Below the pieces are notes generated by a model. It did no database searches. It saw only the letters and a list, made by a program, of their open reading frames with translations, and was not told the DNA's origin. Positions 4,409 through 55,678 of a stretch of 64,000 nt of DNA are shown here, piece by piece. The translations under genes were made by a program, and so were the position numbers. Source of the stretch: Flavobacteriales bacterium (lineage in GTDB: Bacteria; Bacteroidota; Bacteroidia; Flavobacteriales_F; PHOS-HE28); assembly GCA_016787995.1 (NCBI GenBank), contig JAEUTB010000103.1, forward strand, positions 39,827 to 103,826, read 5' to 3'. Numbering within the stretch: position 1 is the stretch's first letter; each line of letters begins with the position of its first letter.

Positions 4409-4735
4409 TCGGTTGGTTCAACCACAGTGCCACGCTACGCTCGCACTGACCATGCGAACTGGTTGTTCTCTACCAAGGATGTACGCGGATCAACACGGAT
4501 AGGAGAGAAGTCTAGCCCTTCACCTTGGGACATGCATTGTCCGTGTCGATCCGTGTCCATCCGTGGTCAACTCATTCAACCCAGCACCGCTTGGTACGGC
4601 CGTTGGCCGGTTTTTCAACCACGGATGCTCACGGATAGACGCGGATCTGGGATCTCCTTGCATCCACCACGGACTAGGCATTATCCGTGTCGATCAGCGT
4701 CCATCCGTGGTTAGTGCATTCAACCACGCATCGCC
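4409..4735. repeat. intergenic cluster of direct and inverted ~20-45 bp repeats (GATCCGTGTCCATCCGTGG / TTCAACCAC motifs)
   Basis: Two ~44-bp direct copies at 4541-4584 and 4685-4729, an inverted copy at 4609-4645, and shorter CACGGAT hits at 4491 and 4667. Confidence 0.6.
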
Positions 4736-18600: not shown

Positions 18601-21600
18601 ATGCCAGTGATCGGATCCACCACCACGACCAACGGGTCCTTTCGGTTGGGTTTAGCCGCTGTTCTCCTCGCCCTGTCCTTCATCCGAACGAATGCGACCC
18701 AAGCGCAGCTCTGTGCCCTCGATGTATTCGTTGCCAACGACCAGAGCGGCTCGGTGAGCGCCTTGGAGAATACCCAGAGCCGTCAGTTCATCAGCGCACT
18801 GTTCATGGGCATGCAGCCCTGGGGCACGGGCGCCGGGGAAAGCCGCATGGCCATCGCCGATTGGGACAGTCCGAACGTTTGGCAGCAATTCAGCTTTCCG
18901 TCTGTAGGCGCCAGCTATACCACGGAGATGAGCGACGTGCTGGCCTATCAGAACGCGACCCGTGCCTTGCTCGGCGGCACTGATCCGGTGACGGCGCTAT
19001 CGCGGTCCTTCCAGCAGATAGGCCAGGCACCCATCGCCGGTCGTACGGCCAAGCCCATCATCGTATTGATGACCGATGCGGATTGCTCCCAAGTGCCTGC
19101 GGGATTGACCACCCTGGCGACGCAGATCAAGAATGCGGGCGTCACCATCGTGGTGGTGGCCATCGAAGCGGCTTCGCTGTGCACATCGCTCATGGGCGCG
19201 CAGGTCGCAAGCCCGGGTGCGTACTTCAGCGCTCCCACTTACGCACAACTGGTGCAAGCCAACGTGCAGCTCGTGCAAGCCATGATCAACGCGGGATGCA
19301 GCGTAGGGGTGGATCCGAGCTACGATCTCAGCATCGCCTTCGACAGCTTCACCGCCTCGGGTTGCATCACGGGTATTCCGGCGTTCCAAGCGAACTACAC
19401 GGTGACCAACAACGCCGCCACGGACTTCAATGGTCCTTTGATGATCTCTTTCTATAGTGGAGACCCCGCGATAAGCACGAGCGCCTTCCTTACCACTCAG
19501 AACCTCGGTACGGTATCCCTACCGGCAGGAGCTAGCATGAGTGGAAGCCTCTCTGGTGGGGTGCTCGCCTCCACCACCGCGCTTTACGCGATCGTCAACT
19601 TCAACGGTGCTATTGCTGGGCATGCGCCGCCCATCGGCTATCTGCCACCGAGCGAGACCTTCGTCCCGGACGAATGGGCCACCTTCAACAACGTGAGCCC
19701 GCGGATCTCCCGGGTGAACGATCCGGTGACCTGCCCACCCCAGGCGCTTCTTTCCACTACTGTGGTCAACCTCGGCGTAGGCTGTGATGACCTCGTGCCA
19801 TATGAAGTGAGCATCTGCAACACCGGCGATGCGGCTGCCTACATCGTTCCATCGCTACCCATAGCCGTGCCGGGCGCAGTACCAGTGACCAACCTGAACG
19901 AGACCGGTACCTATGCGGCGGACCTCGACTGGGCTACCTACTATGGCGGTACCCTGCTTGACGAAGGCCAGGCCGTAGCCACGGACGCTTCGGGGAATGT
20001 GTACCTGGCTGGTCTTACACGCAGCACTGGCTCGATCTCCACAGCCGGGGCGCATCTCGTTGCTGCACCGGGTGGTCGTAATGCATTCTTGGCAAAGTTC
20101 AACAACGCAGGTGTACGTCAATGGGCTACCTACTACGGTGGAACCGGCAATGATTTCGGGCTTTCTGTGGCTACAGACGCTGCGGGCAATGTGTACCTCG
20201 CCGGCTATACCTCGAGCACTACAGGAATCTCAACGGCGGGTTCTCACCAAGCCGCTTTAGGGGGCAGCGATGATGCCTTCTTGGTGAAGTTCAACGCGGC
20301 AGGGGTGAGGCAGTGGGGCACCTACTATGGCGGCACCGGAGCGGATGTAGGATATTCGGTGACCACGGATGCTGCCGGAAACGTATACCTCGCGGGAACT
20401 ACGGAAAGTGCGGGGGGGATCGCGACGGCGGGCGCACATCAAGCGGCGAATGGCGGCTTGGGTGACAACTTCTTGGTGAAGTTCAATGCTGCCGGTGTGC
20501 GGCAATGGGGCACCTACTATGGCGGCAGCGATACGGAGGATCTGGCCAATGTGGCGTGTGATCCCGCAGGCAACGTGCATCTGGTGGGGCAGACGTTGAG
20601 CAACACGGGTATCGCAACAGTCGGCGCGTTCCAACCGAACAACAATAGTGACGATGTGTACCTCGTCCGCTTCAATGGCGCGGGTGTGCGCCAATGGGCC
20701 ACCTATTTCGGCGGCACGGGCGTGGAGACTTTCCCCTCGGTGGCCTGTGATCCCCTTGGGAACATCTTTTTAAGCGGTACGACGAACAGCACGGATGTGA
20801 TCGACATCAACGCGCCTTACCAGCCTTTCAGCAATGGCGGCGATGATGGATTCTTGACGAAGTTCGATGCTGCCGGTTCGCCTGCCTGGAGCACCTACGT
20901 GAGTGGTGAAGATGATGAGGTGATGAACGATGTGGCCGTGGATGCCGTAGGTCGTGTCACCGTGGCTGGGTTCACCAAAAGCGTTTCGGGTATCTCCACG
21001 TCCGGGTCATTCAAGGAGTCCATCGATGGCACCAACCGGGATGCGTTCGCGATGAAATTCAACAACGATGGCATCCTGCTCTGGGGTACCTATTTCGGTG
21101 GTGAGGATGATGATGAGAATTACGCTGTGGCCGTTGATCCCGCAGGGGACGTGTACGTGGTAGGGCTCACCGCCAGTCTGGTCGATCTGGCCACTACGGG
21201 TGCACACCAAACGGTGAACAACGACAACGATGATGCCTACCTGGCCAAGTTCGGTGAGCATGAGCTGCCTCGCATCCTCTATCCCGGTGATTGTTTCGTG
21301 CGCCAGTACATCTACGACTACAGTGCGCTCGGGGCAGGCACGTACAACTTGAGCCTGGGGCTTACTGCTTCGGTGTTCGATCCGGGTGATCCGTTACCCT
21401 TGATCATGCCCGATCAGCACTTCAATGCGGGAACCTTCACCGACATCAGCGGCTTCAATGGGGCCGCCCATACCAGCGACAACGCGGTGATCCCCGCTGC
21501 AGGCAGCCCTTGTGCCACCGGTGATCGGATCAGTGTGAGCGTGAACATCCCCACCGTCAGCAGCTGCGGCAACGGCAACTACGCACAGGCTACCATCACC

Positions 21601-23274
21601 ATCACCAACCTCAGCGGGATCACCGTCACCGGTGCGGACCTTGACATGGACCTGACCGGGCTCGGTGCCACCTATGTGGGTGAACCCTACAATGTGAGTG
21701 CGGGGTTGGACCTTGCCGCGCCCAACCTCCTTGATCCGGCTTATCCGTTCATCCTCCACGCCATCAACGGTCACTCCGGTGCAGTTCAGTTGCCGATATT
21801 GTCACTACCACCCGGTGTGAGCACGTTCCAAGTGGATATCAACATCGGCAGTACGCTCACCAACCTGCTCGTGCAGGTCATCAACATCCACACCGCCATC
21901 AATTCCAGCGGACTCAGCAATACGGGCAGCGATGCTTCGGGTGTGTCGGCGCTTACGGTCCCGGTCATCGCCAACTTCACGTGCCCGGGTGCGATCAATG
22001 CCGGCGGGAACATCTCGCTTGGTGGCATCTCCGTGACGGGTGCGTCGTCCGTGCAATGGGCCAGTACCACGGTAGCTTCCCTCGCCGGTGGCGGTACGTT
22101 GGCCAGCCCCACGATCACCTATGTACCCACGCCGCTCGATATCGCCAATGGCTTCGTAGCCATCAGCCTCACCGCGCTTAGCGCCAGCGGCTGCGATGCT
22201 ACGGTGAGTTGCCAGATCGATATCGCCAACGTGCAATACGACTACGGTGATGCGCCGGTGGTATATGACATGAACATCAACTACCAGCCGCCAGCTGCAG
22301 CATCCACACTGCTTAGTGGTCTGGTCCTGGGTATTTCAGGTCCTACTACGGAGACCATCGCACACAACAGCGTGATGGCCGATGGCGATGGCAACGAGGA
22401 GGACGCGCTGGTCACCAATCCCTATACGGCGCCATGGCCGGGTGTAGGTGGGGTTTTCGACCTTCAGATACGGGCTACCAACAACACGGCTACGGAGAGT
22501 TTCGTACATGCTTTCGTGGATTGGAACGCCGACGGTGATTTCCTGGACTCCTTGGAGAGTTCATCCAACACCGTGGTGAAGATGCCCTTCAGCGGACTGG
22601 GTTCGCACCTGATGCACTTCGTAGTGCCGCCTTTCGCGAACCCCTTCGGACTGTTCTACATCCGCCTGCGCCTTTCCGCGGATAGCATGGCCGTGACCTT
22701 CCCTTACATGGCCGCACCACTGGGCGAAACGGAGGACTACGTATGGGAGTCCGTGGGTATCCTTCCTGTTGAACTGCTTTCGTTCACCGGCACGGATGAA
22801 GGCCCTTCGGTACGCTTGGAGTGGACCACGGCGACTGAGCATAACACCAGTCACTTCGAGCTGGAACGTGGGCGGGATGGAGTGAACTACACATCCATCG
22901 GCACCTTGGCGGCAGCTGGCTTCAGTGCAGCTGTACTTGACTATTCGTTCACGGATCCCTCACCATTGGATGGTCTTTCCTTTTACCGGCTCGTTCAGGT
23001 CGACCTTGATGGTTCGGTGGCTTACCATGGTCCGGTGGCGATCGAACATCGCGCATCCGCCCAAGTGTGGGCACAACCTCTCCCCGGAGATGGAGTTTTG
23101 TTGCACGGTGTTGGCTGGGAGGAGGTCCACGTGCATGATCACAACGGAAGGCTTGTCGCATCAGGTCCACTGACCGACGGGCAGTGGCATTTCAGCGGTG
23201 GTGTATCCGGTGTCTATGTGGCCATTCTACGCCATGAAAGCCGCTCGGAGACCTTGCGCTTCGTGATCCCCTGA
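18601..23274 (+). CDS. giant secreted protein: N-terminal vWA domain, ~8 SBBP beta-propeller repeats, Ig-like regions, C-terminal sorting-type domain
   Basis: Signal peptide; DxSGS MIDAS motif (DQSGS); repeated …GVRQW(A/G)TYYGG(T/S)… units of ~57 aa spanning 19.9-21.3 kb; C-terminus …ELLSFTGTDEGPSVRLEWTTATEHNTSHFELERGRDG…. Confidence 0.85.
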   Translation: MPVIGSTTTTNGSFRLGLAAVLLALSFIRTNATQAQLCALDVFVANDQSGSVSALENTQSRQFISALFMGMQPWGTGAGESRMAIADWDSPNVWQQFSFPSVGASYTTEMSDVLAYQNATRALLGGTDPVTALSRSFQQIGQAPIAGRTAKPIIVLMTDADCSQVPAGLTTLATQIKNAGVTIVVVAIEAASLCTSLMGAQVASPGAYFSAPTYAQLVQANVQLVQAMINAGCSVGVDPSYDLSIAFDSFTASGCITGIPAFQANYTVTNNAATDFNGPLMISFYSGDPAISTSAFLTTQNLGTVSLPAGASMSGSLSGGVLASTTALYAIVNFNGAIAGHAPPIGYLPPSETFVPDEWATFNNVSPRISRVNDPVTCPPQALLSTTVVNLGVGCDDLVPYEVSICNTGDAAAYIVPSLPIAVPGAVPVTNLNETGTYAADLDWATYYGGTLLDEGQAVATDASGNVYLAGLTRSTGSISTAGAHLVAAPGGRNAFLAKFNNAGVRQWATYYGGTGNDFGLSVATDAAGNVYLAGYTSSTTGISTAGSHQAALGGSDDAFLVKFNAAGVRQWGTYYGGTGADVGYSVTTDAAGNVYLAGTTESAGGIATAGAHQAANGGLGDNFLVKFNAAGVRQWGTYYGGSDTEDLANVACDPAGNVHLVGQTLSNTGIATVGAFQPNNNSDDVYLVRFNGAGVRQWATYFGGTGVETFPSVACDPLGNIFLSGTTNSTDVIDINAPYQPFSNGGDDGFLTKFDAAGSPAWSTYVSGEDDEVMNDVAVDAVGRVTVAGFTKSVSGISTSGSFKESIDGTNRDAFAMKFNNDGILLWGTYFGGEDDDENYAVAVDPAGDVYVVGLTASLVDLATTGAHQTVNNDNDDAYLAKFGEHELPRILYPGDCFVRQYIYDYSALGAGTYNLSLGLTASVFDPGDPLPLIMPDQHFNAGTFTDISGFNGAAHTSDNAVIPAAGSPCATGDRISVSVNIPTVSSCGNGNYAQATITITNLSGITVTGADLDMDLTGLGATYVGEPYNVSAGLDLAAPNLLDPAYPFILHAINGHSGAVQLPILSLPPGVSTFQVDINIGSTLTNLLVQVINIHTAINSSGLSNTGSDASGVSALTVPVIANFTCPGAINAGGNISLGGISVTGASSVQWASTTVASLAGGGTLASPTITYVPTPLDIANGFVAISLTALSASGCDATVSCQIDIANVQYDYGDAPVVYDMNINYQPPAAASTLLSGLVLGISGPTTETIAHNSVMADGDGNEEDALVTNPYTAPWPGVGGVFDLQIRATNNTATESFVHAFVDWNADGDFLDSLESSSNTVVKMPFSGLGSHLMHFVVPPFANPFGLFYIRLRLSADSMAVTFPYMAAPLGETEDYVWESVGILPVELLSFTGTDEGPSVRLEWTTATEHNTSHFELERGRDGVNYTSIGTLAAAGFSAAVLDYSFTDPSPLDGLSFYRLVQVDLDGSVAYHGPVAIEHRASAQVWAQPLPGDGVLLHGVGWEEVHVHDHNGRLVASGPLTDGQWHFSGGVSGVYVAILRHESRSETLRFVIP

Positions 23275-35600: not shown

Positions 35601-37649
35601 TTAGAAGTTCTCCTCGGCCCAGCGCTCGATGTCTTTGCGCTGTTGGGCTTCGGTGCGTGCGGTATCGAGTGCGGCCTTGTGGCTGCCTTTCTCGGTGAAG
35701 TATCCCTTGGTCACGGCCTCCTCTTCAGGGGCCATCGTGATCAGGTCATCGGTCGTGCGATTCGGCTTGCGGCGCGTGTGCGCCAGCGCATCGGCCAGGA
35801 GCATCTCGGCGAGCTGCTGCACCTGCTCGCGGTCATCGAGTACCTGGTTGATGGCCTCTTGGCTCAAGTCCCTCTTGAAGGCCTCGATGCTGGCGAGGTG
35901 AGCGTGGGTGTCCGGCGTGTGGTCCATCAGCGCCATCGGCACGTGCTGCACGGCTGGCACCAGGTATCGAAGGCTGCCTTCGTTGGCCGTGGCCAGCACG
36001 TCGCTCAGGTCGGCCGGGTCGAAGTAGACCTGGAAGCTGGTGCCGATGTGGCGCTGGAACTCGCGGGTGAGCAGCTGGTAGGGACGTGCTTCGCCGAGTA
36101 GCGTTGGGCAAAGGCCAGCGTTCGTGAGTTCGTTCGTCCATGGGTGGACGCTACCGAAACGCTCCAGGAATACAGGTCGGTCGATGGTGCGCAGGCTTCC
36201 GGCTGGCATCGCCTTCAGTGCGGCCTGGAATGCCTGGACCTTGTCGGCTCGCTCGCGGCCGATGGCTTCGTGTATCTGCTCGATCACCGAGGCTTCGTTC
36301 GGGAAGTCCTTACGGTGCAGGTTCAGCGCATCAGGGTTCGGCTGGTTCTCCTTGCGGCTGGTCACGTTGTGCCCGCTCCAGTTGAAGTTGCGGTTCACGT
36401 AGTGATCGTTGTGCTGCTTGAACCAGGGCTCGATCACCTTGGCGCGTGCGTTGCGTGCTGCGGCTGGCGTGTACTTCACGCCCATGCTGTCGTACCATTC
36501 GCCCAGCGCCTTGTGTCCGAGTCGGTCAGATTGCACTTGGTAGGGCAGTGCGTAGGTGCCGGTGATCTCGCGCATGTGGCGCACCGCGTTGGCCACTGCC
36601 TGCTTGCTCAGTTCGATGGTGTCCTCTTCACCGATGGCGTAGCCTACAGGGTACCAGCTGTGTGGGTCTAGCACCACGGCCACCTTCTTGCGGTGGTGGT
36701 AGGTTCGCTTGCCGCCCACCTCGCGTTGGAAGAGTAGCTCGTAGTCTGTGGCGTCGTGCACCCACAGGTACGTTGGCTGGGATGGGCGGCTGCGGTGAAC
36801 GACCACGCCGTAGGTGTTGTGGTACTGAGCGCTTCCCTTGGCGTAGACCGCTGCCGCGCGGCCGTTGGCGCCATCGCTGAGGAAGGCCTTAACGGTGTTA
36901 GCGCTGATGGTCTGCCAGCCGCGCGTTGCTGCGATCGCGTTGTAGTCCGATGCGATGGTGCGGAGCGGGTAGTTCTGTGGCCTTGCGGCCAGTAGGCGTA
37001 GCACCTTGCGCTGGTCATCGTCAGCCACCTTCGCGCGGTTGGCGTTGCCGTGGCCACCATGGATAAGCGAGGAGGCGCCAGCTTCACCCGACGTGCGTGC
37101 TTTGAGGTAGGCACGCTTGCGCGCCTCCAGTCGGGCGAACGAGGTGGGGAACTTGCTCGGCAGCTTGGCCTTGTTCAGCTTGATGTATTCAAGCACCAGG
37201 GCCTTCAGCGCCATCACGCTCATGCCGTAGTGCATCTGCACAGCCGCGCTCCCTCCCTCCTTGGTCACCGCATCAACGGTGGCCAGCATGGCCATGATGC
37301 GCGATGCGAGGAGCAGCTCGGCACGGCTCTCGGTGGAAAGACCCATGCCGTTGCCGCTGCGGAAGTCATTCAGGTGTGCCTCGTCCTTGGGGTCGAGAAC
37401 GAGCCAGCGCTCTACCATCTGCACGGCCACCACCTGTTCAGGCGTGCCGCCCAGGTGAGCGATGGCCATTGCCTTGATGGCCTCGGGCAGCGATGCCCAG
37501 TCCACCAGCTCTGCGGCGCTGCCCTTCGCCTTCTGTGCGATGGTGATCAGCCCAGCCTTCACCGCGTTCTCGTACGCGGCCTGCCCAAGGCACGCATCGT
37601 TCACCAACTCGTGGCGTTCGATGAGGTATGTGCCGTTGCGGTTGATCAT
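35601..37649 (-). CDS. Mu-type DDE transposase (MuA-like)
   Basis: 682-aa ORF with an N-terminal DNA-binding region and an rve-type catalytic core (…YLWVHDATDYELLF…, D-D-35-E spacing), plus the Mu transposase C-terminal region. Confidence 0.85.
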   Translation of the reverse strand: MINRNGTYLIERHELVNDACLGQAAYENAVKAGLITIAQKAKGSAAELVDWASLPEAIKAMAIAHLGGTPEQVVAVQMVERWLVLDPKDEAHLNDFRSGNGMGLSTESRAELLLASRIMAMLATVDAVTKEGGSAAVQMHYGMSVMALKALVLEYIKLNKAKLPSKFPTSFARLEARKRAYLKARTSGEAGASSLIHGGHGNANRAKVADDDQRKVLRLLAARPQNYPLRTIASDYNAIAATRGWQTISANTVKAFLSDGANGRAAAVYAKGSAQYHNTYGVVVHRSRPSQPTYLWVHDATDYELLFQREVGGKRTYHHRKKVAVVLDPHSWYPVGYAIGEEDTIELSKQAVANAVRHMREITGTYALPYQVQSDRLGHKALGEWYDSMGVKYTPAAARNARAKVIEPWFKQHNDHYVNRNFNWSGHNVTSRKENQPNPDALNLHRKDFPNEASVIEQIHEAIGRERADKVQAFQAALKAMPAGSLRTIDRPVFLERFGSVHPWTNELTNAGLCPTLLGEARPYQLLTREFQRHIGTSFQVYFDPADLSDVLATANEGSLRYLVPAVQHVPMALMDHTPDTHAHLASIEAFKRDLSQEAINQVLDDREQVQQLAEMLLADALAHTRRKPNRTTDDLITMAPEEEAVTKGYFTEKGSHKAALDTARTEAQQRKDIERWAEENF

Positions 37650-40021: not shown

Positions 40022-40768
40022 ATGATACTCACTCGACTCGGCAACAAGAGGCGCATGGCCTCGAAGCTGTTGCCACACATTCCCGAGCACCAACTTTGGG
40101 TGGAGCTCTTCTTCGGCGCCGGTGGCATGTACTTCAATAAGCCACGCGCACCGCGCAGCATCGTCAACGATCTGGACAGCGAGGTCTACAACCTCTTCTG
40201 CGTGATCCAGGATCGATCCAAGGAGCTGGAGGAGGCGTGGTGCAGCACACCCATACACGACGATCTCTGGAAGGCTTGGAAGAAGAGCGCGCCGACCGAT
40301 CCAGTGTGGCGAGCGGTGCGGTTCCTCTTGGTGAGCAACTTCGGCTTCCTCGGCCTGCCGCAAACGCTCAAGCTGAACAACAAGAACGCGAAGCGACTGC
40401 TATACCATCGCATCGGCCAAACGCGCGATGCATTCTTCGATACCGAGTTCCTGCATTGCGACTTCCGCCAGGTGCTCTGCCGTATCCCGATGAGCAAGAG
40501 CGAGCGCATGAACGCCTTCGTGTATGCCGACCCTCCATACCTGGACACCAAGTGCAACTACAACGATGCATCAACGTGGAAAGAGAAGGACACTCGTGAC
40601 CTCTTCGAAGAGCTTGTATCGAGCGGCCTGCGCTTCGGCATCTCCGAGTTTGATCATCCGGTGGTACTAGCGTTGGCGAAGCAGTACGGACTGCGCGTGA
40701 TCACCATCGGAGAGCGACACAACCTGCGGAACAAGCGAACGGAAATCTACATCACGAACGTTGATTGA
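40022..40768 (+). CDS. Dam-like N6-adenine DNA methyltransferase (D12 class)
   Basis: N-terminal FFGAGGMYF SAM motif and catalytic YADPPY. Confidence 0.85.
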   Translation: MILTRLGNKRRMASKLLPHIPEHQLWVELFFGAGGMYFNKPRAPRSIVNDLDSEVYNLFCVIQDRSKELEEAWCSTPIHDDLWKAWKKSAPTDPVWRAVRFLLVSNFGFLGLPQTLKLNNKNAKRLLYHRIGQTRDAFFDTEFLHCDFRQVLCRIPMSKSERMNAFVYADPPYLDTKCNYNDASTWKEKDTRDLFEELVSSGLRFGISEFDHPVVLALAKQYGLRVITIGERHNLRNKRTEIYITNVD

Positions 40769-40820: not shown

Positions 40821-41369
40821 ATGGATTCGTCAACGGGTAATCTGCTGCGGGGGGCGCCCTTAACGGGGCGCCCCTGTCCCGTTGACCAGCATGCGTTGGA
40901 GTACCTCAAGCTCTACGCAGGTGCTATCCGGTACTGTATCAATGCGCACCATGTACCAGACCACGCTCGTGCAGATGTACATCAGGACGTGAGCGTGCGC
41001 GTGATCCGTCGCTTCAGGAAGTTCGGTCCTGTAACAGGGGCATCGAGCAGTTGGATCTACAGGGTGACGCGCTGCGCATGCATCAGCTTCTGGCGCGATC
41101 ACCGCAAGGGGTCGGAACCCAGCGACAAGCTGGACCTGGTAGCCGCTGAAACGACTCCGGCCGATGAGTGGCTCGATAGGCAGGATGCGCACCAACGACT
41201 CCACCTGGCCGTGGCCACGCTGCCACCGATGAGCAAGGAGATCATGCGCCGTGTGCTCTTGGGACAATCGCTGGTGGAGATCGCTCACGCGCTGGAGATC
41301 GAACATGGAACCGCTAAGGTGGCCGCGCATCGTGCCCGCCTTCTCTTGCGCAAGCGCCTTATCCGATGA
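40821..41369 (+). CDS. sigma-70 family (ECF-like) RNA polymerase sigma factor
   Basis: Region 2 and a C-terminal region 4 HTH (…SKEIMRRVLLGQSLVEIAHALEIEHGTAKVAAHRARLLLRKRL). The start may be downstream of the annotated Met. Confidence 0.7.
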   Translation: MDSSTGNLLRGAPLTGRPCPVDQHALEYLKLYAGAIRYCINAHHVPDHARADVHQDVSVRVIRRFRKFGPVTGASSSWIYRVTRCACISFWRDHRKGSEPSDKLDLVAAETTPADEWLDRQDAHQRLHLAVATLPPMSKEIMRRVLLGQSLVEIAHALEIEHGTAKVAAHRARLLLRKRLIR

Positions 41370-43946: not shown

Positions 43947-46820
43947 TCATTGGTAGCGCTTCACAAGGATCCCGGCTCGCTGCTTGTCCAGGTTCTCGTC
44001 GTACGCATCCAGATAGAAGGTTCGCACCTGCAACGAGCTTCCCATCTGCACCCGCACAGGTACCCGCAGTGCACCTGCATCGGTGAACTTGATGTAGAGG
44101 CGATCGCCTTTCTGGTCCACCCACACCTCGTCCGGATCCAGCAGCACGTTAGGTAGTTGGTCTACCAGCGAGGCGCGTTGCGGTTCCTTGTTCAGCTTCC
44201 TATCCAGGGTCTGGCTATCTAGCTGAATGGGCCTGCCCGAGAAGTCGTTGATGACCACCACGCCCTTGTCGTTGGCATTACGAGCAAACCAACGCTGCGC
44301 TTCTTGCACCGATTCGGTATTGCTCTGTATCGGCGGCAGCGGGGAGGATGCAATGGCCTTCCATGTTCTGCTCTCCGCATCCGACCCATAGCTGTCTCGA
44401 ACGCCAAGCGTGGGCACCTTGCGCTCGCTGCTATCAAGCTCCTTGAGGTAGCTTCGGTTCAGGTCGAACACCTCGCCAGTGATGGCTTTGTTCTTGTCGA
44501 AGCCGCGCTTCTTCATTCTCGCCAGTTCGCCGCTCACCTCCAGCTGCTCCCACGCGTTGCGGGTCTGTTGCGTTAGCTCGTCGCCGGCTGGGCCATCGGG
44601 CGAGCTCACTAGCGTGCAGCGGCAGCCGTCGCCGTTGGGTGGCGCGATCACCTTGAGGATCGGATCGTTCACCGGCCATCGCTTGCCATCGAGCGCGGCG
44701 TGTGCGGGCCGAACTTGCGCATCGCCTTGCGTCCAGTACTCCACGAAGGGTAGTGCATCCGCGTTGCGTTGGATGTCGAACCAGCGGCTCGCTTGCAGGC
44801 CGGTGTTAACGGCGGTCTGGTACTCCGTGGCCAGGTATCGCTTGGTGTACTTCCCCACCACGCCGCTTTCGTCCACCAGGCGTTTGAAGTCCGAGAAGCC
44901 TGTGCTTTTGCGGACCATCGCGTTCAGTTCGGTCGCCTGTGCCAGCGTCTTGACCGCACTGAATCGCGCGATGTTCTGCTCCATGGCCGCGTAGGCCACA
45001 TGGTCCGGTTGGTCGTAGGCCACCTGTTGCAGCCCGCTGCGGAACCGAAGGGCCAGGCCATCGCTCAGGATGCCACGTACCTCTTCGAAGTAGCTCTGCG
45101 ACCAGGCTGCACCACCGTGGGTATCGCGCAGCAGTTGCTCCAGGGCTTCGGCCGCCACCTCTGGTGTGTTCTCCGCACGCACGTTCAGGCGTCCACCGCA
45201 CATGCCACAGCTGCCCAGCTCGGCGCGTGGCCACTGAGCTGTGGCCCCGTCTTCATCTTCGTCCTCGGTGCTAGGCGTGTCCTCGCCCTCGCCCTTCTTC
45301 TTGCCGCTCTGCCTGCCGTTGCCAGGTGGGTTGGCTTCGGGCGCTGGCTTCGGTGGCAAGTCCTTCATGCCGTTGAGCATCTCGTTGATCCGCTCCTCGC
45401 TCACCTTGGGGAAGGCCGTTCGGATGATCGGGCGTGCCACGCTCTCGGGGATCTCGCCGTTGGCCACCTTGGTGATCAGCTCCAACAGGCTCTGCACTTG
45501 TGCGCCGTTCATCGCCGTGTCCTGGATACTCAGGTCGCCGGTGATGGGCAAGGCCGGGTCGGCTGGTTTGTCCGGGTCGGCAGGGGTGTTAGGGTCAGCG
45601 CCAGGCCCCAGCTCCCCAGGCATGCGTCGCGCACCCAGGATGCGGATACCGGTGCGTGCCTCGATGTGCTCGGGGTCGATATCGTAGTGGACAGCCAGCT
45701 TGGCCACGGCGTCCACCAGCTCACCGGCGCTCATGTCGCGGAACTCGTCCCACTCGAACCGCAGGCCTGCGAAGGGGTACCCCAACGCCACCAGGCGCGG
45801 CATCAGCTCCTCGTTGATGACGTGCTGCACGAAGGTCTTATCGCTCTCGTGCCGGTCCTCGGCCACACCCTCAAGCACCTTCATGCTGCCGTAGGTGCCG
45901 CTGGCGTCCTTGTTGTCCGTGGTGCCGTCCTGGCCCATTAGACGCTTGCTCATCTCGGAGTTCATCCGGCTGATGAGCTTGTCGAACAGGTCCGCCGGTG
46001 ATGTGCTCGGCGTGGGTGCGATGCCGAACTCCTCATCGCCCTGGATCACGGCGTAGGCGCTGCTCATCATGTTCTGCATCACCGTCTCCAGCTGGCGTAC
46101 GCGCTTGGCATCGTTGCCGCGTGTCTTCACCCACCGGGCTGGGATGCCGTAGGTGCCGGTGTAGGCGCTCCAGCTGCCGATGGCGTACTTCTTCACCACG
46201 GCCACCGGCGCCACGCGCTCCAGCAGGCCCAGGTCCTCGGGTCGGCCCACTTCGATCAGGTAGGTGCGCAGCGGTTCCTCGCGGAACTGGTAGCCCGTCT
46301 CTTCGCCCTGGCGCCTGGCCACGATGCCCGAGTAGGGCAGGACGTTGCGCGGGTCGATGAGGTTCACCATGCGCAGCTGGCCAGGTGCGCGCAGCTCGCC
46401 CAGCTCTATCAGGCTGTGCCCGACGAAGCGAGCGCCCACCACGTACTTCACGAAGTCCAGGAACCAGGGTGCCTCCAGCAGCCGGGCGAGTTCCGGCTTG
46501 CTATCCCCCTTGGCATCCACCAGCTTGAACTTGGCACCCTGCACGCGCAGCTCCCTGGTCTCGATCAGGCTGCCCAGGTGGGCGTCCTTCAGGATGGAGT
46601 CGTACAGGTCCATGAGCTTCGCACGGTCTGGCCGGTAGAGGTTCTTGGCCATGTTCAGCGCCACGTTCCAATCCGCCATGTCCACCGTGCGGTGGGGCAT
46701 GTTCCACCGCTCCAGGTCGGGCATGCGGTAGCTCTGCATCTGGGCGGGGTGGATCAGGCTCGGCGAGAAAACCGCCCTGAGGCGCTGGATCATGTTCGGA
46801 CGTGTCATTGTGCCACTCAT
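43947..46820 (-). CDS. portal protein (DUF935/Mu gp29-like) fused to Mu gpF-like head morphogenesis domain
   Basis: 957-aa ORF with a portal-like N-terminal ~480 aa and an acidic linker. The C-terminal region carries the Phage_Mu_F signature …YWTQGDAQVRPAHAALDGKRW…PPNGDGCRCTL…. Confidence 0.8.
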   Translation of the reverse strand: MSGTMTRPNMIQRLRAVFSPSLIHPAQMQSYRMPDLERWNMPHRTVDMADWNVALNMAKNLYRPDRAKLMDLYDSILKDAHLGSLIETRELRVQGAKFKLVDAKGDSKPELARLLEAPWFLDFVKYVVGARFVGHSLIELGELRAPGQLRMVNLIDPRNVLPYSGIVARRQGEETGYQFREEPLRTYLIEVGRPEDLGLLERVAPVAVVKKYAIGSWSAYTGTYGIPARWVKTRGNDAKRVRQLETVMQNMMSSAYAVIQGDEEFGIAPTPSTSPADLFDKLISRMNSEMSKRLMGQDGTTDNKDASGTYGSMKVLEGVAEDRHESDKTFVQHVINEELMPRLVALGYPFAGLRFEWDEFRDMSAGELVDAVAKLAVHYDIDPEHIEARTGIRILGARRMPGELGPGADPNTPADPDKPADPALPITGDLSIQDTAMNGAQVQSLLELITKVANGEIPESVARPIIRTAFPKVSEERINEMLNGMKDLPPKPAPEANPPGNGRQSGKKKGEGEDTPSTEDEDEDGATAQWPRAELGSCGMCGGRLNVRAENTPEVAAEALEQLLRDTHGGAAWSQSYFEEVRGILSDGLALRFRSGLQQVAYDQPDHVAYAAMEQNIARFSAVKTLAQATELNAMVRKSTGFSDFKRLVDESGVVGKYTKRYLATEYQTAVNTGLQASRWFDIQRNADALPFVEYWTQGDAQVRPAHAALDGKRWPVNDPILKVIAPPNGDGCRCTLVSSPDGPAGDELTQQTRNAWEQLEVSGELARMKKRGFDKNKAITGEVFDLNRSYLKELDSSERKVPTLGVRDSYGSDAESRTWKAIASSPLPPIQSNTESVQEAQRWFARNANDKGVVVINDFSGRPIQLDSQTLDRKLNKEPQRASLVDQLPNVLLDPDEVWVDQKGDRLYIKFTDAGALRVPVRVQMGSSLQVRTFYLDAYDENLDKQRAGILVKRYQ

Positions 46821-50916: not shown

Positions 50917-51966
50917 ATGAAGCACATCCTCAATTTCATCAGCGCACTGTTCCTCGTCCTGTTGGTCTCGGCCGCAGTGAGTCACGTGGCGGACATCGAA
51001 TTCGCTCACGCCTTCGCCGGTACCCTGGTGGGTTCGGTGGCGCTCTCCTTCGTGCCCATGCCGCAGGGTGTGGTGCCTGCTCTCGTCCTGAAGGAGATGT
51101 GGGAGGCCGAGTTGATCCGAGCGTTCCGCGCCAACCGATCCTGGAACGGTCGCATCCCGCGCAAGGATGCGTACGTAGGGAACAACGCCATCAATCTACA
51201 GGAGATCGGCGCGGACCCAACGGTACTCATCAACAACATCACCTATCCCATCGCGGTGGCTCAGCGTACGGACGACACCACGGTGCTTGCGCTGAACAAG
51301 TACGACACCACCAACACGGCCATCCGTCGCGACGAGTTGTACGCCATCCCCTACGATAAGGAGGGCAGCGTGATCACCCAGCACAAGGAGGTCCTTCTGG
51401 AGAAGACCGGCGAGCACGGCCTGCACATCCTCGCACCCGCTGGCAACACGGCCAATACGCCGGTGATCGCCACCACCGGTGTGGACAACGGCAACGCACG
51501 CCGTCGTTTGAAGAGCGCCGACCTGATCACGTTGAAGAACCGCCTGGACAACCTGAAGGTGCCCAAGGAGGGCCGCATCCTGGTGCTCTGCTCTGATCAC
51601 GTGGCCGACCTGCTCCTGGAAGACCAGAGCTTCCAGTTGCGCTACAACGGCAACACGGAGAAGGGTGTTATCATCGGCATGTTCTACGGCTTCGAGATCT
51701 TCGAGGACGTATACAACCCGGTCTACAACGCAGGCACGACCAAGGTGGGCTATGGCGTGGCCGCTGCACCCAGCACGGACCGCAACGCCAGTGTGTGCTT
51801 CTACGCACCGCGCGCCTTCCAGGCCAGCGGCACCACGGAGATGTTCTTCCGCGACAAGTCGATCGACCCGGAGAACCGTCAGTCGGTGGTCGGCTTCCAG
51901 CAGTACCACATCATCGCACCAATGAAGAACATCGGCTTCGGTGCCATCGCCAGCGCCATCATCTAA
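50917..51966 (+). CDS. major capsid protein candidate
   Basis: ~350-aa ORF directly after the protease/scaffold gene. Its composition is beta-rich. Confidence 0.6.
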   Translation: MKHILNFISALFLVLLVSAAVSHVADIEFAHAFAGTLVGSVALSFVPMPQGVVPALVLKEMWEAELIRAFRANRSWNGRIPRKDAYVGNNAINLQEIGADPTVLINNITYPIAVAQRTDDTTVLALNKYDTTNTAIRRDELYAIPYDKEGSVITQHKEVLLEKTGEHGLHILAPAGNTANTPVIATTGVDNGNARRRLKSADLITLKNRLDNLKVPKEGRILVLCSDHVADLLLEDQSFQLRYNGNTEKGVIIGMFYGFEIFEDVYNPVYNAGTTKVGYGVAAAPSTDRNASVCFYAPRAFQASGTTEMFFRDKSIDPENRQSVVGFQQYHIIAPMKNIGFGAIASAII

Positions 51967-52038
51967 GCGCCTCACACTTCCTCCGCCCCGCTCCGCCATA
52001 CGGCGGATGCGGGGTTGGGGTGGTGAAAACGGACTGCA

Positions 52039-53364
52039 ATGCGCGAACTGAAGGGGTACAAAGAGGAACTCGCCGCAATCGGCCTCCTCTCCATTGTGTT
52101 GCTTCTGATCCGGTGGGTCAGCTCCACCATCTGGCCGACGACTGGACAGTACGACCTGGCCGCGCAGACCGAGACGGTGTTCTTCGTTGTGTTGCGCTTG
52201 GTGATCTACATATTGGCCGCATGCTTGGGTCTTCGCATTGTATCGCCAAAGGCATACACCCACCTGAAGCATCGCCTTCTAGATCGGTTCGATACCCTTC
52301 CCGAGGAGAAGAAGGACAGCTACTCGCTACGAATCTTCGCGGTCATCTTCTTCGGCCTCATCGGACTCGCCGTTGCAGGCTCGCCGGTCGCACCTACCTC
52401 ATCCTTTGTTCGCACGTGTATTGTCGATGCCGCGATGTCCGACGTGGGCGTGCGCGAAGCCACAGGCCGCAATGACGGACCTGCGGTGGAGCGCTACCTC
52501 GCCCACGTCGGCCTCGGCAAGGGCAACCCATGGTGCGCAGCATTCGTGAGCTACCACCTGGATGGATGTGGGGTGAAGAACCCCAGGAGTGCGTGGAGCC
52601 CCGCATTCGCCACTGCCGCGGATCGGGTGTGGACGCCCCGTAAGGCGTCTCGCTCCCCACTTCCAGGGGACGTCTTCAGCATCTACTACCCCAACCTCAA
52701 GCGCGTCGGCCACGTCGGCTTCGTGCGCGGCATTGAGGGTAAGTACCTGCTCACCATCGAAGGCAACACCAGCGGACCGGGCAGCCGCGAAGGAGATGGT
52801 GTCTACGCCCGCAAACGAGAACTCGCCAAGATCCATGCTATCACGTCTTACACCTCGCCAGCGCCTCGGAATTCTGGTGCTACTCGTACTGGTAGCATTC
52901 GCAATGGGCGCCTGCAAACGCAAACAGCAGCTCGTAAGTACCGCGACCACCAACTCCGAGGTGCAGAAGGAGCAAGGCGTTACACCGCGCGACTCGAACG
53001 TGACAGTGCCTGGTGCGCGCGTGGAGGGAAGCATTCCCTTGCCACTGCCTGGTCAGGACATACCCACCGAGACAGTGCGCAGCGATCGCGCTTGGAGTTC
53101 GGTGGCCGTGACCAACGGCCGCATAGTCCACTCCGGTGGCTGCGACTCTGCCTCGTTCGTGGCCAAGCTCTACGATCGATGGAGTCGCGAGCACAGCTCC
53201 AAGGCCAGCACGGAGGTCGTTCAGCAGGTGACCGAGAAGGAAGTGCCTTACACGCCGAAGTGGGTGTGGTGGTCACTGCTCCTCGGTATCGCTGGAGCCG
53301 TGAAGCTGCTGTGGCCGATCGTGGCCAAGGTCCTCAAGTTCCTCAAACCCCTGTTCTAGCATGA
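52039..53364 (+). CDS. membrane-anchored (3 TM) CHAP-domain peptidoglycan hydrolase; the C-terminal ~170 aa of the ORF are probably not real protein
   Basis: CHAP motifs (…GNPWCAAFVSYHL…GHVGFVRGIEG…TIEGNTS…). After about 52860 the frame becomes Arg-rich junk and has no stop until 53364. Confidence 0.55.
   Translation: MRELKGYKEELAAIGLLSIVLLLIRWVSSTIWPTTGQYDLAAQTETVFFVVLRLVIYILAACLGLRIVSPKAYTHLKHRLLDRFDTLPEEKKDSYSLRIFAVIFFGLIGLAVAGSPVAPTSSFVRTCIVDAAMSDVGVREATGRNDGPAVERYLAHVGLGKGNPWCAAFVSYHLDGCGVKNPRSAWSPAFATAADRVWTPRKASRSPLPGDVFSIYYPNLKRVGHVGFVRGIEGKYLLTIEGNTSGPGSREGDGVYARKRELAKIHAITSYTSPAPRNSGATRTGSIRNGRLQTQTAARKYRDHQLRGAEGARRYTARLERDSAWCARGGKHSLATAWSGHTHRDSAQRSRLEFGGRDQRPHSPLRWLRLCLVRGQALRSMESRAQLQGQHGGRSAGDREGSALHAEVGVVVTAPRYRWSREAAVADRGQGPQVPQTPVLA
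52835..53359 (+). CDS. unimolecular-spanin-like protein (N-terminal lipoprotein signal, C-terminal TM), embedded in an alternative frame of the CHAP ORF
   Basis: MLSRLTPRQRLGILVLLVLVAFAMGAC (lipobox) … C-terminal WVWWSLLLGIAGAVKLLWPIVAKVL TM. Confidence 0.5.
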   Translation: MLSRLTPRQRLGILVLLVLVAFAMGACKRKQQLVSTATTNSEVQKEQGVTPRDSNVTVPGARVEGSIPLPLPGQDIPTETVRSDRAWSSVAVTNGRIVHSGGCDSASFVAKLYDRWSREHSSKASTEVVQQVTEKEVPYTPKWVWWSLLLGIAGAVKLLWPIVAKVLKFLKPLF

Positions 53365-53909
53365 ACAAGTCATTCCTTGCCTCCGTAGTTGAGGTCTTCG
53401 CTACCTATCCCGAAGCCAATGCCGTGTACCTATGCGAGGATGGCAGTGTCTTCTTGGAAGAGCGCATCAACCTGGCTCAGAACTACAGCCGCGAGAACCG
53501 CTTCGGCGCACCGCAGCTGGTGACGCGCGAAGATGCGGAAGCCATGGACAAGGCCACCGGTAAAGTGCAGGAAGTGGTCGACGACATCAAGGCGCGCAAG
53601 GATGCCGAAGCCGCTGCCGCTGACCAGGCTGCAAAGGCCGTAGCTGAGCAGGAAGCCAAGGACATCGCAGCTGCTGCGGCGGATGGCGTGATCGTGAAGA
53701 AGGATGGCGACGCTTGGCTCGCTCACCGGAACGACTTCATCAACCTGCAAGAAAGTCCGGCAGGATACGGCGACAGCATCGCGAAAGCGGTAGAGAACCT
53801 GAAGGCGCGTGAGGCTTCGCTGGAGGAAGCCGCCGCCAATCAGACCGCCCAGGATGCGGCCCGTCAGGCTGAGAAGGACAACAAGCCGAACAACGGCAAG
53901 CGCCGGTAA
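53361..53909 (+). CDS. phage protein, Ala/Lys/Glu-rich coiled coil
   Basis: 182-aa ORF. Confidence 0.5.
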   Translation: MNKSFLASVVEVFATYPEANAVYLCEDGSVFLEERINLAQNYSRENRFGAPQLVTREDAEAMDKATGKVQEVVDDIKARKDAEAAAADQAAKAVAEQEAKDIAAAAADGVIVKKDGDAWLAHRNDFINLQESPAGYGDSIAKAVENLKAREASLEEAAANQTAQDAARQAEKDNKPNNGKRR

Positions 53910-53972
53910 CCCGAACGCCACCAGGTCACAGAACATCAACCGCGCTTCAACGCGCATTGAACACAGGTTAGA

Positions 53973-55244
53973 ATGAGCTTTCGCGGACCAGTCATCAACA
54001 AGATCAACGGAGGTCTCGGCCAACAAGCGCCGAGCGACCGCAACGTCGCTGCGTTGATCATCGCCAGCGGTTACGCGGTGGGTACCACCTTCCCGCTCGG
54101 TGCCACAGTGGAGCTCGATAGCATCGACGATGCTGCTGCGCTTGGTCTTACGCCAGCCACCGATGCCAACGCCGCTGGTGATACCACGGCGCTCACCTGG
54201 TACCACATCAGCGAATTCTTCCGGCTGAACCCGGACGGTAAGCTGTTCGTCCATAACGGTAGTGCGGTGGCCGCTGCGAACATCTTCGCGGCCAACGGTC
54301 CGGCCGATGCCATCATGACCGCGAGCGCCAACAGCGTCCGGTTCATGGGAGTCGTGTTCGGCTTCGATCCCGATGCGACCCTCACCATCACCGGAGGCTT
54401 CGCCAACTTCGTGCCCACGGTGCAGGCTGCTGCCCAGGTGTGGGTTGATGCACGCGCTCAGGATCACGTCTTCGTGGACTGCGTGGTGGTGGAAGGTGTG
54501 GCTGCGAGCACCACGCTGGTGGACCTCAAGACGCTCGACAGCCCGCAGGTCCACATCACGGTCGCTTGCGACCATGGTTACCTGGCCGAATACCCAGCCG
54601 CGTTCTTGAAGACCGCTGCTGTAGGTACGGTGCTCGGTAGCATCGGCGTTCGCATGCTCAGCGAGAGCATCGGTAGCGCCGTGCTGGAGCGCTACCCGAG
54701 CGGCAAGCGTGGCTCGGCCAACTACAGCCTGGTGGACACCCGCCAGAACCGCTGGCTCAAGCCAGGCCTGAGCACCGGCGTGTTGTTCGATGCGCTCAGC
54801 CAGGCTGTGCGCGATGAGCTCACCACGAAGGCCTACGGCTATGCCGGTCGCTTCGAAGGTTATCCCGGCGTCTACTTCAACGCCGAGGCCACCTGCACCA
54901 CGGTGGTGGATGACTTCAATACCATCCATGCCAACCGCGTGTGGAACGAGTGTGCTCGTCGCTTGCGTCGCGCCCTCATTCCGCGCATCAACAGCCGCAT
55001 CCGGATCGATTCCGCCACCGGCCGCATCGCACCCGAGACCATCGCCGACTGGGACGCAGCATCCAAGCGCGAGCTGGAGGCGCTCCTGGCCGAAGGCGAG
55101 CTGGCCGACTTCACGTTCACCCTCAACCCTGAGCAGGATGTGATCGCCCAGGGCAAAGTGGTCTGCTCTGTCCGGGTGGTGCCACAAGGCATCGCCAAGG
55201 TCATCGAGGCCGACCTCGGATTCACCAACCCAGCACAAGCCTAA
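53973..55244 (+). CDS. tail sheath protein candidate
   Basis: 423-aa ORF just upstream of the tube-like gene. The opposite-strand 607-aa ORF is a shadow. Confidence 0.55.
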   Translation: MSFRGPVINKINGGLGQQAPSDRNVAALIIASGYAVGTTFPLGATVELDSIDDAAALGLTPATDANAAGDTTALTWYHISEFFRLNPDGKLFVHNGSAVAAANIFAANGPADAIMTASANSVRFMGVVFGFDPDATLTITGGFANFVPTVQAAAQVWVDARAQDHVFVDCVVVEGVAASTTLVDLKTLDSPQVHITVACDHGYLAEYPAAFLKTAAVGTVLGSIGVRMLSESIGSAVLERYPSGKRGSANYSLVDTRQNRWLKPGLSTGVLFDALSQAVRDELTTKAYGYAGRFEGYPGVYFNAEATCTTVVDDFNTIHANRVWNECARRLRRALIPRINSRIRIDSATGRIAPETIADWDAASKRELEALLAEGELADFTFTLNPEQDVIAQGKVVCSVRVVPQGIAKVIEADLGFTNPAQA

Positions 55245-55246
55245 CC

Positions 55247-55678
55247 ATGGCAACAGAGATCATCAACAACTTCGGCCAGGTGGCCGGTTGGAACCAGCAC
55301 AGCGTTGTGCTGCTCGGTCGCAAGCTCGTAGGTATCTCCAAGATCTCCTACAAGGACAGCACCGAAGTGGAGGCCATCTACGGAGCTGGTGGATACCCCG
55401 TAGGTACCGGCGACGGCAACTACAGCGCCGAGTGCGGCATGACGCTCCTGAAGGAGGAGGTGGAAGCACTGCTCGGCAGCTTGCCAGCTGGCAGCCGCCT
55501 ACAGGACATCCCCGCTACGGACATCCCGATCCTTACCATCCGCAACGGCCGCACCACCAAGGACGTGATCCGGAACTTCCGGTTCACCGGCCTCGGTAAG
55601 GAGGTGAGCCAAGGCGACAAGAGCGTGTACCTGGAGATGCCGTGCTTCTGCACGCACATCGACTGGAACGTGCAGTAA
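55247..55678 (+). CDS. tail tube protein candidate
   Basis: 143-aa ORF whose position and size match a myovirus tube. Confidence 0.5.
   Translation: MATEIINNFGQVAGWNQHSVVLLGRKLVGISKISYKDSTEVEAIYGAGGYPVGTGDGNYSAECGMTLLKEEVEALLGSLPAGSRLQDIPATDIPILTIRNGRTTKDVIRNFRFTGLGKEVSQGDKSVYLEMPCFCTHIDWNVQ

Follow-up and report, generated by a model that had tools for sequence, protein, structure and literature searches.

A u-spanin-like lipoprotein gene nested in the stop-free extension of a CHAP hydrolase gene: a candidate dual-coding lysis module of Mu-like Bacteroidota prophages

The stretch of DNA analysed here (the window) comprises 64,000 nucleotides (nt) from a Flavobacteriales bacterium (assembly GCA_016787995.1, contig JAEUTB010000103.1, positions 39,827 to 103,826) and carries a Mu-like prophage in which one open reading frame (ORF) encodes a predicted membrane-anchored CHAP hydrolase followed by a long extension, the tail. 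A second gene, for a lipoprotein with a C-terminal transmembrane (TM) helix, is nested in this extension in the +1 frame (Table 1). Comparison with 26 relatives revealed that both frames are held by selection across diverged loci, the lipoprotein frame for its protein and the CHAP frame for the absence of stop codons; amino-acid constraint is found in one of the two frames, not in both. We consider it very likely that dual coding is maintained by selection at this locus. Our preferred interpretation, to which we assign a probability of roughly 0.55, is that the two genes form a dual-coding lysis module of Mu-like Bacteroidota prophages, the extension being kept open for ribosome transit and translational coupling.

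We collected 27 long-form loci, i.e., the window and its 26 relatives, with guanine-plus-cytosine (GC) contents of 40-69%, from GTDB genomes, IMG/VR, JGI, ENA and Logan assemblies; a metagenome scan contributed three of them and look-ups of exact proteins gave more. A +1-frame lipoprotein homolog is encoded in all 27. It lies wholly inside the CHAP ORF in each of the 24 high-GC loci, and in the three low-GC loci it runs 76-91 nt past the host stop and is overlapped rather than fully embedded. About 47 database homologs of 422-458 amino acids (aa), with 44-67% identity, likewise cover the tail, and more distant CHAP relatives of ~271 aa end in ...RYIK as soon as the domain is complete. Among 239 CHAP-family loci, the ORF length past the CHAP domain is bimodal: it is at most 21 codons in 219 of them, no locus falls between 21 and 137 codons, and all 27 loci with an embedded lipoprotein have tails of 137-186 codons. 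One further locus (L147) has 140 tail codons and no detected lipoprotein gene. In a Flavobacteriales metagenome-assembled genome (MAG) with 67% GC (L109, 4402-5028), the CHAP gene stops normally, the lipoprotein gene follows in the +2 frame, and its -1 frame contains two stops over 178 codons; high GC alone therefore does not yield the embedded, stop-free state.

The embedded ORF opens with its own ATG, although translation may start instead at an upstream ATG at 52796. Its N-terminus, MLSRLTPRQRLGILVLLVLVAFAMGA-C, combines a positively charged n-region with a 14-residue hydrophobic core and ends in A-M-G-A-C, the lipobox cysteine being Cys27. The AlphaFold2 (AF2) model, with a predicted local distance difference test score (pLDDT) of 84.6, consists of a signal helix (aa 7-26), an extended segment, a three-stranded sheet, a helix and the C-terminal TM helix, which is hydrophobic, conserved and modelled with pLDDT >90. 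Both the predicted lipoprotein signal and the C-terminal helix that the initial annotation had recognized in this ORF are thus borne out. Relatives begin with M-[KR]-hydrophobic-[AG]-C, and every embedded gene has its own ATG directly at the signal peptide. Cys27 is the sole invariant column in an alignment of 75 family sequences; within the 27 loci, the motifs PRDT and GGCD or CxCD are conserved, followed by P-x-W and the terminal TM helix, and the GGCD/CxCD motif places a conserved cysteine, Cys103, in the predicted periplasmic domain.

Substitution patterns point in the same direction. The ratio of nonsynonymous to synonymous substitution rates (dN/dS) in the lipoprotein frame is 0.18-0.58, like that of flanking genes, and dS is also similar to theirs. 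The periodicity of GC content by codon position (GC3) in the overlap tracks the lipoprotein frame and not the CHAP frame. Of the 26 nucleotide differences from a 96%-identical relative, 19 affect the third codon position of the lipoprotein, with seven amino-acid changes in the lipoprotein against 21 in the tail. By these comparisons the embedded lipoprotein is a genuine conserved protein under purifying selection. The dN/dS values, the invariant lipobox cysteine, the C-terminal TM helix and the linkage to CHAP together support the earlier proposal of a genuine, Rz1-style embedded gene beside a membrane-tethered endolysin.

A profile search of 1.84 billion representative sequences returned 192 members of the lipoprotein family, mostly stand-alone proteins of 150-180 aa. 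A scan with hidden Markov models identified 48 CHAP loci carrying the family, and in most of them it lies right after or within the CHAP gene; in about 20 loci it immediately follows a short CHAP gene in frame +2 or 0, stop and start overlapping by a few bases. One family member of 285 aa (P0162) has ~120 additional N-terminal aa ahead of the lipobox, among them several hydrophobic segments; this reflects either a wrongly called start or fusion to a holin-like membrane domain. The lipoprotein gave no match in Pfam, PHROGs, NCBIfam or PDB sequences, no match by tblastn against 50,697 phage records (INPHARED), and nothing informative by Foldseek against PDB and BFVD. It combines an N-terminal lipoprotein signal containing a lipobox cysteine, a C-terminal TM domain and genomic association with an endolysin, the architecture of a unimolecular spanin (u-spanin), with no match to a described u-spanin family such as T1 gp11; a spanin function is predicted from this layout. 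The nested genes are poorly represented in databases: only seven entries for the lipoprotein exist among 5.8 billion predicted proteins, against dozens of loci that encode it, and in all ten contigs retrieved via a long CHAP protein the gene callers give the long CHAP ORF and omit the lipoprotein.

The tail behaves quite differently from the lipoprotein. Its frame shows dN/dS values of 0.83-3.0, the only conserved columns in an alignment of the 27 sequences are those that the lipoprotein frame imposes, and AF2 predicts no structure for residues 276-441 (pLDDT ~30). Lipoprotein-frame dS, which we inspected for depression as a sign of constraint on the tail, is not consistently lowered in the overlap. 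The initial annotation had described the continuation as Arg-rich and not protein-like. The window tail does contain 17% Arg, but this is generic to off-frame translation of GC-rich DNA, with ~20% in -1-frame translations of neighbouring genes; the sequence is indeed unconstrained and predicted to be unfolded, but that description missed that selection keeps the frame open. Homologs that extend through this region with conserved sequence had been named there as evidence that would speak against an embedded gene; homologs do extend, without conserved sequence. We also considered the tail as a cationic, Arg-rich peptide that disrupts the outer membrane and rejected this as a shared property, because the tails (mean net charge per residue +0.04, range -0.05 to +0.11) are less basic than generic off-frame translation (+0.13). 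Judged from these alignments, the extension is kept open by selection and the sequence that it encodes is irrelevant.

Selection against stops was assessed with two controls: how often stops occur in neighbouring genes when these are read in the same relative frame (codon positions 3-1-2), and an exact calculation over synonymous codons that keeps the lipoprotein sequence and local codon usage. The CHAP frame contains no stop over the 136-169 overlap codons in any of the 27 loci. In neighbouring genes the 3-1-2 frame has 0.7-3% stops per codon at high GC and 6-9% at low GC, and the exact calculation agrees. Between one and 12 stops are expected per locus, with 6-12 in the loci at 40, 42, 45 and 55% GC. 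For 19 representatives with <60% lipoprotein identity, ~84 stops were expected and none was seen; the summed log10 P is -37 to -42, a value in which the multiplied probabilities overstate independence, since the loci are phylogenetically related. Two observations are free of this assumption. The first comes from the low-GC lineages: L095 (45% GC), L099 (40%) and L241 (42%) each give P of ~1e-4 to 1e-7, with values of ~1e-5, 1e-6 and 1e-4 among the estimates, and their lipoproteins are only ~30% identical to each other. The second is site-specific. At the third position of lipoprotein codons that precede AA, AG or GA, where a T would create TAA, TAG or TGA in the CHAP frame, T occurs at 0 of 113 junctions at low GC and 0 of 471 at high GC, whereas neighbouring genes use T at such junctions in 26.3% and 8.5% of cases (Fisher test, P = 1e-14 and 9e-18). 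At harmless junctions the use of T is normal or nearly so (28% versus 31% at low GC, P = 0.33; 8.6% versus 11.4% at high GC, P = 1e-4). Where members of the same family are encoded by a separate gene, the corresponding frame has 219 stops in 3259 codons (0.067 per codon), compared with seven in 4370 for the embedded genes, and these seven are apparently the CHAP terminator and positions after it. The window by itself gives a P of ~0.01-0.03 for the absence of stops and a P of 0.095 in the site test; this signal is weak, and the significance rests on the comparative data.

The initial annotation held that the CHAP ORF lacks an in-frame stop, which is incorrect: it ends at a TGA that overlaps the ATG of the next gene as ATGA, and the TAG of the lipoprotein lies 2 nt upstream of this junction. 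The CHAP-frame stop is no more than 7 nt from the next ATG in 20 of the 24 high-GC loci, as ATGA in 14 and as TGAnATG or TGATG in others. This proximity persists despite a variable spacer between the lipoprotein stop and the next ATG, which in the high-GC loci measures 1, 4, 10, 12, 16, 18, 19 or 35 nt and is congruent to 1 modulo 3 in 17 of the 24. The gene that starts at 53361 always follows the module in relatives. Its product has a conserved N-terminal domain of ~60 aa (Y-[VL]-x-E-D-G-x-x-F-L...N-L-A...H) and then an Ala/Glu/Lys-rich low-complexity tail, and gave no match in Pfam, PHROG or NCBIfam. The junction suggests that this gene is probably translationally coupled to the module.

The CHAP protein of the window is 100% identical to the database entry 'MAG: CHAP domain-containing protein [Flavobacteriales bacterium]'. 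Its aa 160-243 match Pfam PF05257 above the curated threshold (35.6 bits versus a cut-off of 26, E = 1.4e-8), and it also matches the PHROG endolysin families phrog_9589, 21825 and 21357 (E = 1e-15 to 7e-10). Four residues, C166 in WCAAFV, H225 in RVGHVG, E241 and N243, are invariant across 27 homologs. AF2, run with the 27-sequence alignment, gives a confident CHAP fold over aa 121-271 (pLDDT ~88-91). Since the well-folded region ends at aa 271, the domain ends near nt 52854, in good agreement with the previous estimate of 52860, and the three N-terminal TM helices proposed at the same time reappear in the model as three long helices. The positively charged loop between helices 2 and 3 suggests, by the positive-inside rule, an N-in topology that would place the CHAP domain in the periplasm.

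Two side observations concern this N-terminal region. A lipobox-like L-[AS]-G-C (LLAMSGC or LLALSGC) closes helix 3 in about two-thirds of the long-form CHAP homologs (alignment columns ~140-150, corresponding to 52303-52395 of the window), and the window protein itself has LAVAGS, without Cys, at this point. The motif suggests that, in those homologs, signal peptidase II may cleave the protein into a two-TM N-terminal fragment, possibly holin-like, and a lipid-anchored CHAP enzyme. In the Chitinophagales MAG contig JAXLTW010000022.1 (L099, 3983-5332), the TM part (3983-4384, ending in the lipobox-like LLSSC) and the CHAP part (4420-5250) occupy distinct ORFs. The interruption lies within a conserved VREATGxNDG motif and is either a genuine split or the result of a frameshift or pseudogene formation; the locus keeps the CHAP-frame read-through across the lipoprotein gene and the same +1-frame overlap.

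These features can be combined into a working model. The CHAP peptidase would be held, probably by its three N-terminal helices, at the periplasmic face of the inner membrane, and the lipoprotein, translated from its own start codon, would bridge the inner and outer membranes as a one-piece spanin. As no CHAP stop follows the domain, ribosomes would continue for ~169 codons, pass over the embedded gene and be released at the start of the next cistron, within ATGA. The late mRNA would thereby stay ribosome-covered, leaving no untranslated stretch and no polarity; downstream expression would be tied to that of CHAP, and the spanin-like gene would be left to its own internal initiation, probably at a lower level. 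The disordered C-terminal tail of the enzyme would be a by-product. Bacteroidota largely lack Shine-Dalgarno-led initiation, a scarcity with which the ribosome-transit model fits. That the locus is a lysis module appears probable to us. Coupling or protection from polarity as the reason for the open extension is a tentative proposal, held with clearly less confidence. With slightly more reserve still, it is tempting to speculate that the extension is a "translated spacer", conserved for being translated and ferrying ribosomes to the next cistron; if true, it would shield the late transcript from polarity and fix the ratio in which endolysin, spanin and downstream gene are expressed.

Several points weigh against this interpretation, beginning with the relatedness of the loci noted above. 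The transit model and the functions proposed for the lipoprotein are computational predictions. A benefit for translation must explain why some 140 or more codons stay open, though a phage could evolve strong initiation of the lipoprotein gene instead. In the three loci of low GC content, the CHAP frame closes at the beginning of the TM-coding region, 79-88 nt short of the next gene, and it is the lipoprotein stop, not the CHAP stop, that abuts the next ATG; coupling of CHAP to the next gene is therefore not universal, and only the coverage of most of the embedded gene is. Doubts about lysis itself come from the lipoprotein, which resembles no characterized spanin in sequence or fold and has a conserved periplasmic Cys that the 58 catalogued u-spanins lack (PMC6139136), from the location of the module among head and tail genes and not in a classical lysis cassette, and from the holin, of which none was identified, no holin-directed search having been made.

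The main rival to the translational model is that the tail itself, at ~140 residues or more, is functional through its length or bulk properties and not its sequence, as a tether spanning the periplasm, as a steric brake or pro-region on the exported CHAP enzyme, or as a partner of the lipoprotein following Rz-Rz1 logic. By analogy, the endolysin tail and the lipoprotein from the same DNA may form an endolysin-spanin complex in which the enzyme takes the place of the inner-membrane partner. Selection indeed acts against truncation, as the bimodal tail lengths illustrate, and the tail always spans the whole periplasmic part of the embedded gene, including in the low-GC loci that stop well before the next gene; these loci fit a functional tail at least as well as they fit translational coupling. 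An enzyme that is seemingly exported early would, moreover, need restraint. Overprinted viral proteins, too, are typically disordered. On the other hand, dN/dS values of 1 or more, the absence of conserved columns and a pLDDT of ~30 speak against this rival, the net charges given above reveal no shared physico-chemical signature, and close CHAP relatives have no tail at all. On balance we hold a functional tail to be less likely than not.

Less probable still is that the same nested architecture serves an envelope role other than lysis, such as local cell-wall remodelling, superinfection exclusion or envelope anchoring of assembly. The doubts about lysis listed above, i.e., the capsid-sheath position, the holin, the missing homology to known spanins and the periplasmic Cys, would all be accommodated by such a role. 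However, CHAP matches endolysin families in PHROG, the examined part of the prophage showed no further peptidoglycan hydrolase, and the pairing of CHAP with the lipoprotein recurs in many IMG/VR phage contigs. An exported murein hydrolase together with a protein that joins an outer-membrane lipoprotein to an inner-membrane TM helix follows the logic of an endolysin and a u-spanin (PMC6139136).

A neutral origin of the open frame, in which GC-rich composition rarely produces stops in the 3-1-2 frame and the ORF simply runs to a chance stop, is very improbable. Long off-frame ORFs are common in the window, for example a 607-aa ORF antisense to the sheath gene (53430-55253, minus strand), the window values for stop avoidance are modest, and the GC-richest loci give P of only 0.1-0.3. 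Composition nevertheless fails to explain 27 open frames out of 27, among them those at 40, 42, 45 and 55% GC, the avoidance of T at stop-creating junctions only, the normal stop density where the family is a separate gene, and the lack of intermediate tail lengths. Programmed ribosomal frameshifting (+1 or -2) to a CHAP-lipoprotein fusion, perhaps cut by signal peptidase II, seems to us just as hard to credit: the frames overlap by ~20 nt at the junction, and the lipobox after TM helix 3 in many homologs makes internal lipoprotein-type processing conceivable, but every embedded gene has its own ATG at a canonical signal, the zero frame would not need to stay open for ~160 more codons, and no conserved slippery motif was noticed, without a systematic search. 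Finally, the possibility raised by the initial annotation that an assembly or sequencing frameshift near 52820-52880 conceals the true CHAP stop, for which one might cite the distant short-form relatives that end right after the domain, is refuted by the same frame relationship in 27 loci that were assembled independently, with unrelated samples and assemblers behind them (NCBI MAGs, JGI, ENA, Logan; 31-85% protein identity), none of which has a CHAP-frame stop near the domain end, and by the ~47 long database proteins.

Table 1. Features of the nested CHAP-lipoprotein locus (positions in the window)
Feature	Position (nt)	Strand	Basis or remark
CHAP ORF, 441 aa plus TGA stop	52039..53364	+	ORF list; three TM helices, CHAP peptidase, 169-aa unconstrained tail
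N-terminal membrane domain, helices aa 2-31, 40-68, 89-113	52042..52377	+	AF2 secondary structure
CHAP (NlpC/P60-type cysteine peptidase) domain, aa 121-272	52399..52854	+	Pfam, PHROG, pLDDT, invariant residues
Catalytic Cys166	52534-52536	+	
Catalytic His225	52711-52713	+	
CHAP-frame 3' extension (tail), aa 273-441	52855..53361	+	Stop-free; predicted unfolded
Embedded +1-frame gene, 174-aa lipoprotein with C-terminal TM helix (u-spanin-like); TAG stop 53357-53359	52835..53359	+	Conservation, dN/dS, GC3, AF2
Lipoprotein signal peptide MLSRLTPRQRLGILVLLVLVAFAMGA plus lipobox Cys27 codon (52913-52915)	52835..52915	+	Alignment, AF2 helix 7-26
C-terminal TM helix of the embedded lipoprotein, aa 142-170, after P-K-W-V-W-W motif	53258..53344	+	AF2, conservation
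ATGA junction: CHAP-frame TGA 53362-53364 overlaps ATG 53361-53363 of the next gene	53361..53364	+	
Next gene, 182 aa, no known family	53361..53909	+	Conserved position and junction

The module does lie between capsid and tail genes, as had been noted from the sequence: the major capsid gene ends at 51966 and the sheath gene begins at 53973. Domain and family matches identify a Mu-like prophage with an rve-type transposase, Mu gp36, a Mu-type portal fused to MuF and a PBECR2 nuclease, TerS (DUF1804) and TerL. After TerL follow a ClpP-like protease or scaffold, the major capsid protein, the CHAP ORF, the small conserved protein, the sheath (DUF2586), a tail protein that is probably the tube, the tape measure and the baseplate. 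The order protease-capsid-CHAP-small protein-sheath is kept in all related loci retrieved, which makes the position among head and tail genes a stable trait of this phage group. The rve-like (MuA-type) transposase (35601-37649, minus strand), a D12 N6-adenine methyltransferase (40022-40768) and an ECF-type sigma factor (40821-41369) occupy the left part of the prophage. A single 956-aa ORF (43947-46820, minus strand) joins the Mu-type portal (PF06074), the MuF-like head morphogenesis domain (PF04233) and a C-terminal PBECR2 barnase/EndoU-like nuclease (PF18810).

Between the capsid stop and the CHAP start (51967-52025, plus strand), a GC-rich RNA hairpin is predicted (-43 kcal/mol, z = -3.7, none of 200 shuffles as stable) that has no U tract; it may be an element that stabilizes the mRNA or causes attenuation, keeping expression of the module below that of the capsid protein. 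A scan of the plus strand from 51700 to 54100 detected no terminator-like site. Besides the ORF antisense to the sheath gene, off-frame ORFs of 200-350 aa occur at 51196-52272 (minus strand) and 51795-52475 (plus strand), showing that spurious long ORFs arise easily in 60% GC DNA. A 1557-aa ORF (18601-23274, plus strand) lies in the presumably bacterial portion of the window.

We found no literature precedent for an endolysin gene with a u-spanin nested in it, nor for Bacteroidota CHAP endolysins with several TM helices, weak evidence given the incomplete coverage. Endolysins with TM regions are excluded by design from a recent survey of viral lytic proteins (PMC12596118). Lysis systems of Bacteroidota phages are poorly known, and the present loci define an uncharacterized, u-spanin-like family of ~190 clusters together with a class of membrane-anchored CHAP endolysins in these phages. 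They also expose an annotation blind spot, in which the lipoprotein is missed and the endolysin is recorded with ~170 spurious-looking residues, and they offer a natural case for what selection on an overlapping frame can mean, namely a "junk" frame held open without amino-acid constraint.

Out-of-frame lysis genes overprinted on other genes, such as phiX174 E in D and MS2 L, occur in tiny single-stranded DNA and RNA phages under genome-size pressure. The present locus likewise has a lysis-related gene sharing DNA with a gene in another frame, one of the frames being weakly constrained; it differs in belonging to a Mu-like prophage of ~40 kb of double-stranded DNA, in an overlap of ~500 nt, and in that weak constraint applies to the frame that extends the larger gene. 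Signal-anchor-release (SAR) and signal-peptide endolysins, e.g., P1 Lyz and R21 of phage 21, are Sec-exported murein hydrolases held at the membrane before lysis. The CHAP enzyme is also predicted to be exported and membrane-held, but it has three hydrophobic helices of 25-30 residues instead of the one weakly hydrophobic N-terminal helix of a SAR endolysin, a CHAP instead of a lysozyme domain and, in many homologs, a lipobox after helix 3.

U-spanins often accompany such endolysins (29 of 46 cases; PMC6139136). The embedded lipoprotein resembles u-spanins such as phage T1 gp11 (PMC6139136) in its N-terminal signal with a lipobox Cys, a periplasmic domain of ~115 aa with beta strands, a C-terminal TM helix, a family size of 150-180 aa and a position beside an exported or membrane-anchored endolysin. 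It is set apart from them by the absence of detectable homology, by Bacteroidota hosts, by a role that is predicted, and by Cys103 (C-x-C-D/G-G-C-D), a periplasmic Cys being present in none of the 58 catalogued u-spanins (PMC6139136).

The closest parallel in gene arrangement is Rz/Rz1 of phage lambda (Kongari et al., 2018, PMC6139136), where a lipoprotein lysis gene is likewise contained entirely, in the +1 frame, within a second lysis gene that acts on the envelope. In both cases the overlap falls where the host gene tolerates sequence change, and gene callers systematically overlook the inner gene. Embedded spanin architectures have been proposed to originate when the upstream gene loses its stop (PMC6139136), and such an origin fits the CHAP-lipoprotein locus. 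There is no sequence similarity between the two systems, and the overlapped segment of the host gene lacks amino-acid constraint here. The host is a three-TM CHAP peptidase, a predicted endolysin, and not an inner-membrane spanin (i-spanin) with an N-terminal TM segment and a periplasmic coiled coil; the embedded protein has its own C-terminal TM helix, the u-spanin layout, and would therefore need no i-spanin partner. Nested lysis genes have so far been known only as an outer-membrane spanin gene inside an i-spanin gene, and a spanin-like gene inside an endolysin gene is a different architecture.

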